A stretch of 64,000 nucleotides of DNA, from the IMG/VR virus record IMGVR_UViG_3300025318_000007, positions 1 through 64,000 of that record. One strand, given 5' to 3'. The DNA is from a virus. The position numbers and the translations under genes are program-made. The notes under the pieces are model-generated. The model did not search any database, was not told where the DNA came from, and worked only from the letters and a program-made list of their open reading frames with translations. Below, piece by piece: positions 63,046-64,000 of the stretch. Position 1 is the stretch's first letter, and each line of letters starts with the position of its first letter.

Positions 63046-63444
63046 TTAGTCGTCGTGATTGTTAAGGCCCCGTTTAAATAGATCGCGTCGATTAAGACTC
63101 ATCAATAAGCGGCTCTTCATATCGAACGCAGAGGCGGCCTTGGTTAACAACTTGTGTTCTTTGTGTAAGCGTGTACACTCGTTTTTCAATTCATTCCATT
63201 TTGCATCAGATCGATACATTCGTTTAATGTGCGTTTCTTTTGCGTCTTCATCTTGTAATTTGTATTGTTGAGCTAAAGTTACTTCGTGTGTTTCTAAAGC
63301 AATTTGAGCTTTTTCAGCAAGTTCTTCTGCTTCCACAGATAGGGCTGAAACAGAATAGAAGTAAGATGGACATGTAGCCATCTCTCCTTCTAAATTCATT
63401 TCGTTGATGCGTACTAACTTACTAACGTCGAGTTGTTCGGACAT
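63046..63444 (-). CDS. hypothetical coiled-coil protein
   Basis: ORF track. Confidence 0.4.
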   Translation of the reverse strand: MSEQLDVSKLVRINEMNLEGEMATCPSYFYSVSALSVEAEELAEKAQIALETHEVTLAQQYKLQDEDAKETHIKRMYRSDAKWNELKNECTRLHKEHKLLTKAASAFDMKSRLLMSLNRRDLFKRGLNNHDD

Positions 63445-64000
63445 GAGCCTTCTGATTGGTAAATGTCATTCAGCTTCTTGATGTTATCAAGTATAGCTTG
63501 AATCTGTATTGGGTTAAGCGCCGCTGTTAAATCGATCTTAAGTCCGTTTGGTCGCGGACCCAGTACATCTATATTATGTAAAGCGGCCATTGATGCCATT
63601 CTCGTATCCATACTAACACGTCTACGAGCTGCCCAAATAATTTCGCCAACACTATTCATGCCCAACAAGTGAACATTCTTGCCAGCTGCGCGAAGTGAAG
63701 GAAGCGTTGGTCCAATGAATTCCATTCGCACACAAGCTAATTCTTCAGCGTTTAAATTTGAAGTAACGCTTTCGTAATACTGTACAAGTCGGGGAAATCC
63801 AACCCAACGAATAGAACGCTGTTTACAAGCAAATTCGATTTCTCGCATTGCTTCTGCTTTTGTGCGGCCCTGAATAACATACAGAAGTTCTGGTTTACGA
63901 AAAAGAGTTAACTGATCAAATACAAACTCATAATCGTAAAAGTTCTGCCTTGTCTTTTGCGCGTCGCAGAGTACGTCAGGAACTACTACGACTCTGGGTT
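63414..64000 (-). CDS. TGT-fold transglycosylase, DpdA-like (3' part; gene runs off right edge)
   Basis: frame open from 63414 to window edge; YVIQGRT, HLLGMNSVGEIIWAARRRVSMDTRMASMAA aligns to Tgt [31 protein letters not shown] incl. catalytic Asp; no Zn CxCxxC motif. Confidence 0.45.
   Translation of the reverse strand, partial: PRVVVVPDVLCDAQKTRQNFYDYEFVFDQLTLFRKPELLYVIQGRTKAEAMREIEFACKQRSIRWVGFPRLVQYYESVTSNLNAEELACVRMEFIGPTLPSLRAAGKNVHLLGMNSVGEIIWAARRRVSMDTRMASMAALHNIDVLGPRPNGLKIDLTAALNPIQIQAILDNIKKLNDIYQSEGSCPNNSTLVS

Follow-up and report, generated by a model that had tools for sequence, protein, structure and literature searches.

A predicted DpdA3-type guanine transglycosylase with preQ0 genes and a P-loop partner gene in an uncultured phage lineage

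A partial open reading frame at the end of a 64,000-nucleotide viral sequence (IMG/VR record IMGVR_UViG_3300025318_000007, positions 1 to 64,000; hereafter the window) belongs, as judged from profile comparisons, to a divergent clade of DpdA3 guanine transglycosylases carried by an uncultured phage lineage. The DpdA3 family itself is already known, having been described in 2023 with CGPG_00065 of phage phiST as its founder (Hutinet et al. 2023, NAR, PMC10516641), and the new element is the strongly divergent clade. The encoded protein is probably a DpdA3-type guanine transglycosylase that is fed with preQ0, works with a P-loop partner and is predicted to replace the guanine of phage DNA in part or in whole. 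According to this prediction, the phage very probably replaces guanine in its own DNA to escape host restriction enzymes. The first-pass annotation of this DNA had read the frame as DpdA/TGT-like, a reading now supported by a profile-profile match to the phiST DpdA3 clade, by three catalytic aspartates and by preQ0 genes, and which we refine by placing the protein in the DpdA3 branch and not with bacterial DpdA, DpdA1 or DpdA2.

The gene at the window edge and its kinship with DpdA3

The frame is open to the window edge and is translated from position 63998 downwards over 194 codons to a stop codon at 63414-63416 on the minus strand (Table 1), as expected from the earlier remark that it continues past the edge. 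A search of a collection of 5.8 billion proteins recovered its full-length twin, P0001, of 279 aa and 100% identical; the start codon lies 253 nt past the window edge. About 30 homologues of P0001, all of them metagenomic and 34-53% identical, share a conserved gene order, and on account of these homologues and this order we regard the frame as a real gene and not as a chance ORF. The terminase of the phage lineage that carries it shows at most 25% identity to any cultured phage. Neither megablast with positions 60000-64000 nor tblastn with the window fragment matched any of 50,697 phage records, and the latter revealed no cultured-phage relative.

Table 1. Features in the window discussed in the text
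Feature	Position	Strand	Remarks
DpdA3-like transglycosylase gene, 3' part (residues 86-279 + stop)	63414..64000	minus	runs off window edge
Asp93 codon, PDVL motif	63975..63977	minus	predicted base-recognition Asp (E. coli Tgt D143, S. Montevideo DpdA D130); hhalign
Gln128 codon, VIQG motif	63870..63872	minus	pairs with Tgt IIQG; hhalign
H195-L-L-G198 (HLLGMN motif)	63660..63671	minus	pairs with Tgt YLMGVG; His195 and Gly198 in 160/160
RRRVSMDTRM segment, residues 210-219	63597..63626	minus	contains Asp216
Asp216 codon	63606-63608	minus	putative nucleophile equivalent (Tgt D264, DpdA D256); 160/160, hhalign
Small conserved ORF directly downstream of the transglycosylase gene	63046..63444	minus	132 aa as listed; 111 aa on ENA contig
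gp32-like single-stranded-DNA-binding protein	62063..63028	minus	weak Pfam gp32 match; same position in relatives
RecA/UvsX-like recombinase	60969..62039	minus	Pfam RecA_N
HNH_3+AP2 protein	57862-58440		confirmed
dATP/dGTP diphosphohydrolase-like (PF18909)	10377..10814	minus	Pfam E 2.4e-11, 43.9 bits, cut-off 27
ThyX thymidylate synthase	9728..10423	minus	Pfam Thy1, E 4e-42
NUDIX hydrolase	8560..9129	minus	Pfam NUDIX, E 9.5e-16

Curated models and single-sequence searches returned little for this family. Pfam, NCBIfam and PHROGs gave nothing meaningful for the window fragment, the best match being phrog_19058 of unknown function (E 0.33), and Pfam applied to eight family members yielded sub-threshold DUF6610 matches alone and no TGT (PF01702) match. 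PADLOC, whose DpdA model was included, matched no clade member, and one distant relative matched that model at E 0.025 only. Profile searches of PDB sequences with the family gave nothing relevant, and BLASTP against phiST DpdA3 (CGPG_00065) gave no match. The HMM search against DpdA and Tgt profiles that had been put forward as a check on the first reading fails when it is taken literally, that is, with the Pfam TGT, NCBIfam and PADLOC DpdA models.

The kinship emerges when whole families are compared. A HMMER search of 1.84 billion representative proteins with the family profile (E <= 0.001) collected 404 proteins, those outside the clade being proteins of ~250 aa with E values of 1e-13 to 1e-6. 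When phiST CGPG_00065 was used as a phmmer query (E <= 0.01), it matched 116 of the 171 proteins in a set composed of the best 150 of these 404 family-profile matches and the family members found earlier. In hhalign comparisons, the clade aligned with the phiST DpdA3 clade over its full length (99.9%, E 7e-31, 247 columns) and with the clade of Bacillus phage BSTP12 (99.9%, E 1e-37, 230 columns), and the A2 profile aligned with the single phiST sequence (96.5%, E 7e-10, 200 columns). Similar comparisons of the clade with E. coli Tgt (0.3%, E 0.18, 134 columns) and with DpdA4 of HVTV-1 (HVTV1_69; 0.4%, E 0.14, 52 columns) were not significant, so that membership of the Tgt or DpdA4 families is not claimed at the level of sequence. 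A profile of the whole superfamily reached HVTV1_69 with 52% and E 1.5e-4 only. Membership of DpdA4/DUF6610 (PF20314) was considered as a separate assignment and rejected, given that no Pfam match exceeded the threshold and that hhalign against HVTV1_69 gave 0.4%.

Judged by these alignments, the protein is a remote yet secure relative of DpdA3, with an identity of ~18-20% and a place in a clade of its own. As Pfam, NCBIfam, PHROGs and PADLOC are all blind to this clade of ~30 proteins, surveys of DNA hypermodification that use such models miss it.

Fold and active site

An AlphaFold2 model built on a 29-sequence alignment predicts a confident (beta/alpha) barrel (pLDDT 89.2, pTM 0.88), in which a floppy loop of low pLDDT at residues ~55-72 corresponds to an insertion that is peculiar to the clade and follows the first catalytic aspartate. 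A structure search of BFVD with this model returned phiST M4SLA5 as a top viral match (E 2.8e-12, TM 0.73/0.78). The TGT-like TIM-barrel fold expected of a DpdA3 protein is thereby recovered at the level of the model, and we picture the protein as a minimal TGT-superfamily TIM barrel of ~280 aa that lacks the zinc subdomain.

Since matches to CitE, HpcH and PdxJ appear in the Foldseek search of the PDB at E-values near that of Tgt, the protein might be a TIM barrel of different chemistry (an aldolase or lyase, a PdxJ-like protein or an enzyme of nucleotide metabolism) whose likeness to TGT reflects the common barrel only. We hold this to be very improbable: in the structural ranking all five TGT-superfamily representatives stand above every other barrel, the three TGT catalytic aspartates are invariant and in register, and genes of the family lie within FolE/QueD/QueE/QueC clusters in several independent lineages.

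In TGTs and DpdA, three invariant aspartates serve as general acid/base, base reader and nucleophile, and mutation of D95 or D256 abolishes DpdA activity (PMC10164549). Among 160 aligned superfamily sequences, D51 is conserved in 158 and D93 in 159, and R176, H195, G198 and D216 are found in all 160. Aligned with E. coli Tgt by hhalign, D51, D93 and D216 pair with D89, D143 and D264, a register that rests on a weak alignment (E 9e-4) backed by the order of the motifs; the VIQG and HLLGMN motifs fall on IIQG and YLMGVG in the same alignment. The protein thus appears to carry the three aspartates typical of the TGT/DpdA superfamily. The first-pass annotation had recognised a TGT core pattern with RRRVSMDTRM as its catalytic-Asp segment; the segment stands, and its alignment to Tgt, which was one residue out of register, is corrected here so that Asp216 lies opposite the Tgt nucleophile Asp264. 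By analogy with the double displacement of TGT-type enzymes, Asp216 would attack C1' and displace guanine, Asp51 would act as the general acid/base and Asp93 as the base reader, and the incoming deazapurine would resolve the covalent intermediate.

The absence of a C-terminal CxCxxC...H zinc site, also noted at first pass, is borne out by inspection of the cysteines in the fragment and in its homologues. The four cysteines of the window fragment are scattered (residues 96, 143, 174 and 271), its histidines are at 195 and 226, and the CxCxxC...H motif is absent from it. C52, which belongs to the DCGVG motif, is the sole cysteine conserved among 29 homologues; DCGVG, GFPR and DTR are signatures of the clade. 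The motif is likewise absent from the phiST DpdA3 sequence, and for this reason a zinc site does not look to be required in the DpdA3 branch.

The preQ0 pathway, the gene neighbourhood and the P-loop partner

The genes that would feed such an enzyme lie beyond the window. The window end is shared over 1634 nt, with 0 mismatches, by IMG/VR contig 3300025155_000048 (loci L008 and L015), which adds 18.3 kb; this contig in turn shares 8620 nt (8 mismatches) with JGI contig Ga0209519_10000498 (L028), which adds another 2.6 kb. Together they extend the sequence by ~21 kb past position 64000, so that ~85 kb were available in total; exact-match scans of viral contigs gave no further extension. Upstream of the transglycosylase gene, the order is the P-loop partner, a DNA polymerase A with an N-terminal UDG-like domain, and dUTPase/DCD, primase, DnaB and helicase genes, followed further upstream by FolE, QueD, SbcC and SbcD, a radical-SAM QueE homologue and QueC. 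FolE (E 1e-55) and QueD (E 3e-29) are clear, the CxxxHGH motif of the latter marking it as a true QueD and not the DpdL variant. The radical-SAM protein is a homologue of phage proteins annotated as QueE (E 2e-14 to 8e-21), and QueC is 32% identical to the E. coli enzyme (E 7e-24; PDB QueC 1e-21), with a cluster of cysteines at its C-terminus and the PP-loop SGGADS. In the window and L015, phmmer queries with E. coli QueC and a phage Gat-QueC had no matches, and QueC emerged only after the extension with the metagenome contig.

All four of the folE, queD, queE and queC homologues that the first-pass annotation had suggested looking for past position 64000 are thus found on overlapping contigs of the same phage, within the replication module and 9-21 kb upstream of the transglycosylase gene. 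By homology, the virus co-encodes the 7-deazaguanine synthesis genes expected of a DpdA3 phage. FolE, QueD and QueE would convert GTP to CDG, and QueC would convert CDG to preQ0, so that the phage would make the 7-deazaguanine base itself. No homologues of QueF, PpnN, DpdL or Gat-QueC were detected in the ~85 kb; given that QueF, Gat-QueC and DpdL went undetected there, the predicted base is preQ0, or ADG or CDG if the later steps differ. Within the clade, FolE is within reach in this phage and in L005 only. Several relatives show no Que gene within the readable 10 kb, and at the other clade loci the readable 10 kb stops short of the position that FolE occupies in this phage.

Distant relatives of the transglycosylase also lie within 7-deazaguanine clusters. 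Among cultured phages, the relative in Chryseobacterium phage MA9V-3 is accompanied by queE and folE, and that in Bacillus phage BSTP12 by Gat-QueC, QueD, a QueE-like gene and FolE beside DNA polymerase I. Among metagenomic loci, L035 comprises QueD, QueE, QueC, FolE2, the transglycosylase-like gene and AAA_28, and L036 comprises QueC, AAA_28, the transglycosylase-like gene, FolE, QueE and QueD; the relative at L032 also lies inside a 7-deazaguanine cluster.

On the window side, the RecA and SSB neighbours and the HNH nuclease named in the first-pass annotation were confirmed, the last as an HNH_3+AP2 protein, and so were its dNTP-pool enzymes, which are ThyX, the NUDIX hydrolase and the dATP/dGTP diphosphohydrolase-like protein (Table 1). 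The Dam-like methyltransferase that it listed was not found: no ORF of the window has the [DNS]PP[YFW] motif, and a Pfam scan of 30 ORFs from 229-23689 and four others, which reached only a minority of the ORFs at 23.7-57 kb, gave no methyltransferase match. The small ORF directly downstream of the transglycosylase gene has no Pfam match, and an ORF of 134-149 aa takes its place in L034 and in those clade loci for which gene calls and sequence downstream are available. The dATP/dGTP diphosphohydrolase-like ORF, for which no PDB sequence relative was found, could serve to deplete dGTP or to supply dGMP, and may in this way contribute to the modification. Elsewhere in the window, a weak Nuc_deoxyri_tr2 match was seen at 16527-17129, with no PDB sequence relative. 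The position of the transglycosylase gene, between DNA polymerase and SSB/RecA, is constant across the clade.

The preQ0 pathway is also the pathway to queuosine in tRNA. In view of this and of its TGT-superfamily fold, the protein could be thought of as a tRNA-guanine transglycosylase that tunes translation by using a queuosine precursor to re-modify tRNA of the host or the phage, with no action on DNA. However, the protein lacks the zinc site that bacterial DpdA shares with the TGTs of known structure (PMC10164549), the family gives no Pfam TGT match, its nearest relatives are the DpdA3 proteins of phages with modified bases in DNA and not in tRNA (PMC10516641), and the gene keeps its place between the DNA polymerase and SSB/RecA. 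Because of the missing zinc subdomain, the structural ranking, the Asp triad and the gene context, neither a chemically unrelated barrel nor a role on tRNA is likely, and we give the tRNA role hardly any credence.

A P-loop gene (AAA_28, 165-200 aa) lies directly upstream of the transglycosylase gene in 15 of the 15 clade loci with a readable upstream side. The loci with the partner are L001, L007, L008, L003-L004 (copies of two lineages), L002, L005, L006, L009-L012, L014 and L024-L026; that of L006 carries an intein, and at L013 only the 3' part of the partner is on the contig. In this phage, the partner overlaps the start of the transglycosylase gene by ATGA. The two genes also adjoin each other in L034, L035 and L036, all three of the distant relatives checked; two of these lie in preQ0 clusters. 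In P0135, whose gene lies between FolE2 and QueC, the transglycosylase domain (residues 9-298, superfamily profile E 5e-53) carries the partner as a C-terminal fusion (residues 304-493, partner profile E 1.8e-19). Compared with the ribosylnicotinamide-kinase domain of NadR (1lw7), the partner profile matches over its full length (E 7.5e-8), and neither ParB-like nor other DNA-handling ATPases were among its matches. In phiST and MA9V-3, DpdA3 is likewise directly preceded by a gene for a small P-loop protein (AAA_18, E ~1e-7), and the immediate upstream neighbour in BSTP12 has a Walker A motif; comparison of the AAA_28 partner with these three proteins showed no homology beyond Walker A. According to the DpdA3-defining paper (PMC10516641), other deazaguanine phages lack homologues of CGPG_00066, and among the literature searched no paper links a NadR-like protein to DpdA or describes the pairing.

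We suggest that the transglycosylase and the translationally coupled, NadR-kinase-like P-loop protein may form a two-gene module, in which the partner would most likely supply an NTP-dependent step, as DpdB, the ATPase required by bacterial DpdA (PMC10164549), does for that enzyme. That it helps at the level of DNA is a guess, as the partner resembles a small-molecule kinase and not the ParB-like DpdB. The lead bears on the question of whether complete guanine replacement takes place on DNA or in the nucleotide pool. DpdA3 phages reach 100% G replacement, infected cells were found to contain the ADG nucleoside, and the authors who defined the family propose post-replicative insertion (PMC10516641).

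In a pre-replicative route, which is the main alternative, the base would be exchanged on free dG or dGMP, the NadR-like kinase would phosphorylate the product, dGTP would be cleared and the polymerase would incorporate the deazapurine. Such a route would explain complete replacement as seen in these phages, and the ADG nucleoside of infected cells is consistent with it. The full-length homology of the partner to a nucleoside kinase domain points the same way, as do the adjacency and the fusion that tie the barrel and kinase-like activities together, the dATP/dGTP diphosphohydrolase-like and NUDIX proteins of the window with ThyX nearby, a MazG inside the phiST cluster, and the bare barrel of the protein, which has neither a zinc subdomain nor extra domains. 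We nevertheless consider it unlikely. To our knowledge, the characterised enzymes of the TGT superfamily all act on polynucleotides or proteins, and none on free nucleotides. In addition, a kinase-like fold does not reveal the substrate, the dGTPase-like gene is 53 kb from the module, and the post-replicative view is the one proposed in the DpdA3-defining study (PMC10516641).

A more general proposal is that DpdA3-type enzymes are obligate two-component systems with a NadR-like kinase-fold protein, acting in the boldest form of the idea on the nucleoside or nucleotide pool. We regard it as speculative and doubtful. If true, it would make complete-replacement 7-deazaguanine genomes pre-replicative, analogous to the logic of Z-genomes (PurZ/MazZ/DatZ), and would explain why DpdA3 alone is inactive in E. 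coli.

The preferred reading remains that of a transglycosylase for which DNA, and not the nucleotide, is the predicted substrate. Its expected outcome would be phage DNA with dPreQ0 or a close derivative in place of G, and hence resistance to restriction, which makes DpdA3-like enzymes of interest for producing restriction-resistant DNA.

Comparison with known systems

The closest known counterpart is phiST DpdA3. The two proteins are similar in size (259 aa against 279 aa here) and homologous at the profile level over their full length, share the motifs LD(N/C)G, PD(V/I)L, QG, HxLG and S-x-D-(T/S), and both lack a zinc site. A further common trait is the position of the gene, between the DNA polymerase and the genes for 7-deazaguanine synthesis and immediately downstream of a small P-loop gene. 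They differ in that the sequences are only ~18-20% identical, the present clade being separate and found in metagenomes only. Furthermore, phiST has DpdL and lacks QueC, and with it the full preQ0 pathway, whereas this phage has QueC and no detected DpdL, and the partner is AAA_18-like in phiST but AAA_28/NadR-like here. When DpdA3 was expressed in E. coli it was inactive (PMC10516641), and no member of the family is known to be active; that the P-loop partner was not co-expressed may be why DpdA3 could not be reconstituted in E. coli.

With Tgt (PF01702), the protein shares the catalytic Asp triad in register, whereas it is ~100 residues shorter, lacks the zinc subdomain and has no Pfam match. 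DpdA4/DUF6610, as in Halovirus HVTV-1 gp69, is likewise a viral TGT-like protein encoded beside FolE, QueE, QueD and QueC, and some distant relatives of the present family give sub-threshold DUF6610 matches.

Bacterial DpdA of the Salmonella Montevideo dpd system (PDB 7UI4; PMC10164549) has the three active-site aspartates at equivalent positions. It is, however, a protein of 413 aa with a structural zinc site and DNA-binding insertions (PMC10164549), all of which are missing here, and the share of G that it modifies is below 0.1%, compared with 100% in DpdA3 phages (PMC10516641). Dependence on a separate NTPase, shown for DpdA and DpdB, is suggested here by gene linkage alone, and the bacterial helper is ParB-like whereas the phage partner is NadR-kinase-like.

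A NadR-like P-loop gene paired with the DpdA3-like gene

A small P-loop gene resembling the ribosylnicotinamide kinase of NadR and matching Pfam AAA_28 adjoins the DpdA3-like guanine transglycosylase gene without exception, as observed on the overlapping contig of the same phage (L008) and at L002, L005, L006, L009-L014, L024-L026 and L032-L036. Wherever both frames could be checked, they share a few nucleotides (ATGA in this phage), and in P0135, encoded within a FolE2-QueC cluster, the P-loop partner and the DpdA3-like protein are fused into a single polypeptide. No description of a NadR-like P-loop/DpdA3-like pairing was found in the literature searched. 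Directly upstream of the pair lies a DNA polymerase A gene carrying a uracil-DNA-glycosylase-superfamily domain, which occupies the same place in L002, L005, L006, L024-L026 and L034.

In the cultured Bacillus phage BSTP12 and its relatives BSTP5, BSTP8, BSTP10 and BSP7, the annotation of the DpdA3-like gene varies among hypothetical, NadR, integrase and polynucleotide kinase. Fused homologues are the probable source of the name NadR, and viral nadR auxiliary-gene calls may sometimes denote a P-loop/DpdA3-like module instead.

Mobile elements

The P-loop/DpdA3-like module is invaded by mobile elements, as indicated by an intein with a LAGLIDADG endonuclease inside the P-loop partner of one clade relative (L006:8217-10001) and by a LAGLIDADG domain fused N-terminally to the DpdA3-like domain in P0108. 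Within the window, a homing-endonuclease-like gene overlaps the 3' end of the large terminase ORF (58364-59824).

Features of the window, of contigs extending the same phage (L008, L028) and of related phages
Feature	Location	Strand	Remarks
Band_7/SPFH protein	window 1384-1947	-	
NUDIX hydrolase	window 8560-9129	-	
ThyX	window 9728-10423	-	
dATP/dGTP-diphosphohydrolase-like protein	window 10377-10814	-	PF18909
Nucleoside 2-deoxyribosyltransferase-like protein	window 16527-17129	-	weak sub-threshold Pfam match, E 1.8e-4
DUF6899 protein	window 17065-17388	-	also found in the L025 replication module
Possible phosphoribosyltransferase	window 17367-17801	-	weak sub-threshold Pfam match, E 6e-3
ClpP-like protease	window 17764-18330	-	
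GH108 lysin with peptidoglycan-binding domain	window 19750-20340	-	
HNH_3 + AP2 homing-endonuclease-like gene	window 57862-58440	-	inserted between large terminase and portal genes
DNA polymerase A	L008:6551-9289		N-terminal Pfam UDG, E 4e-23
P-loop partner gene	L008:9447-10004		~250-807 nt beyond window position 64000
291-aa ORF between QueC and QueE	reverse complement of L028, 1655-2527		this phage's extension
Small RF-1-domain (peptidyl-tRNA hydrolase-like) protein and NADAR-domain protein	L002:6162-6485		replication module of 157-kb contig
DpdA3-like gene BSTP12_038	L017:5821-6609		Bacillus phage BSTP12

Nucleotide-pool genes

The weak matches to a nucleoside 2-deoxyribosyltransferase, for which no relative was found in the PDB, and to a phosphoribosyltransferase could bear on base exchange at the nucleoside level. 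Elsewhere in the window, the PF18909, ThyX and NUDIX hydrolase genes neighbour one another, and a dGTP-clearing enzyme would fit a complete replacement of guanine. PF18909 corresponds to the MazZ/DatZ type, which Z-genome phages are known to carry.
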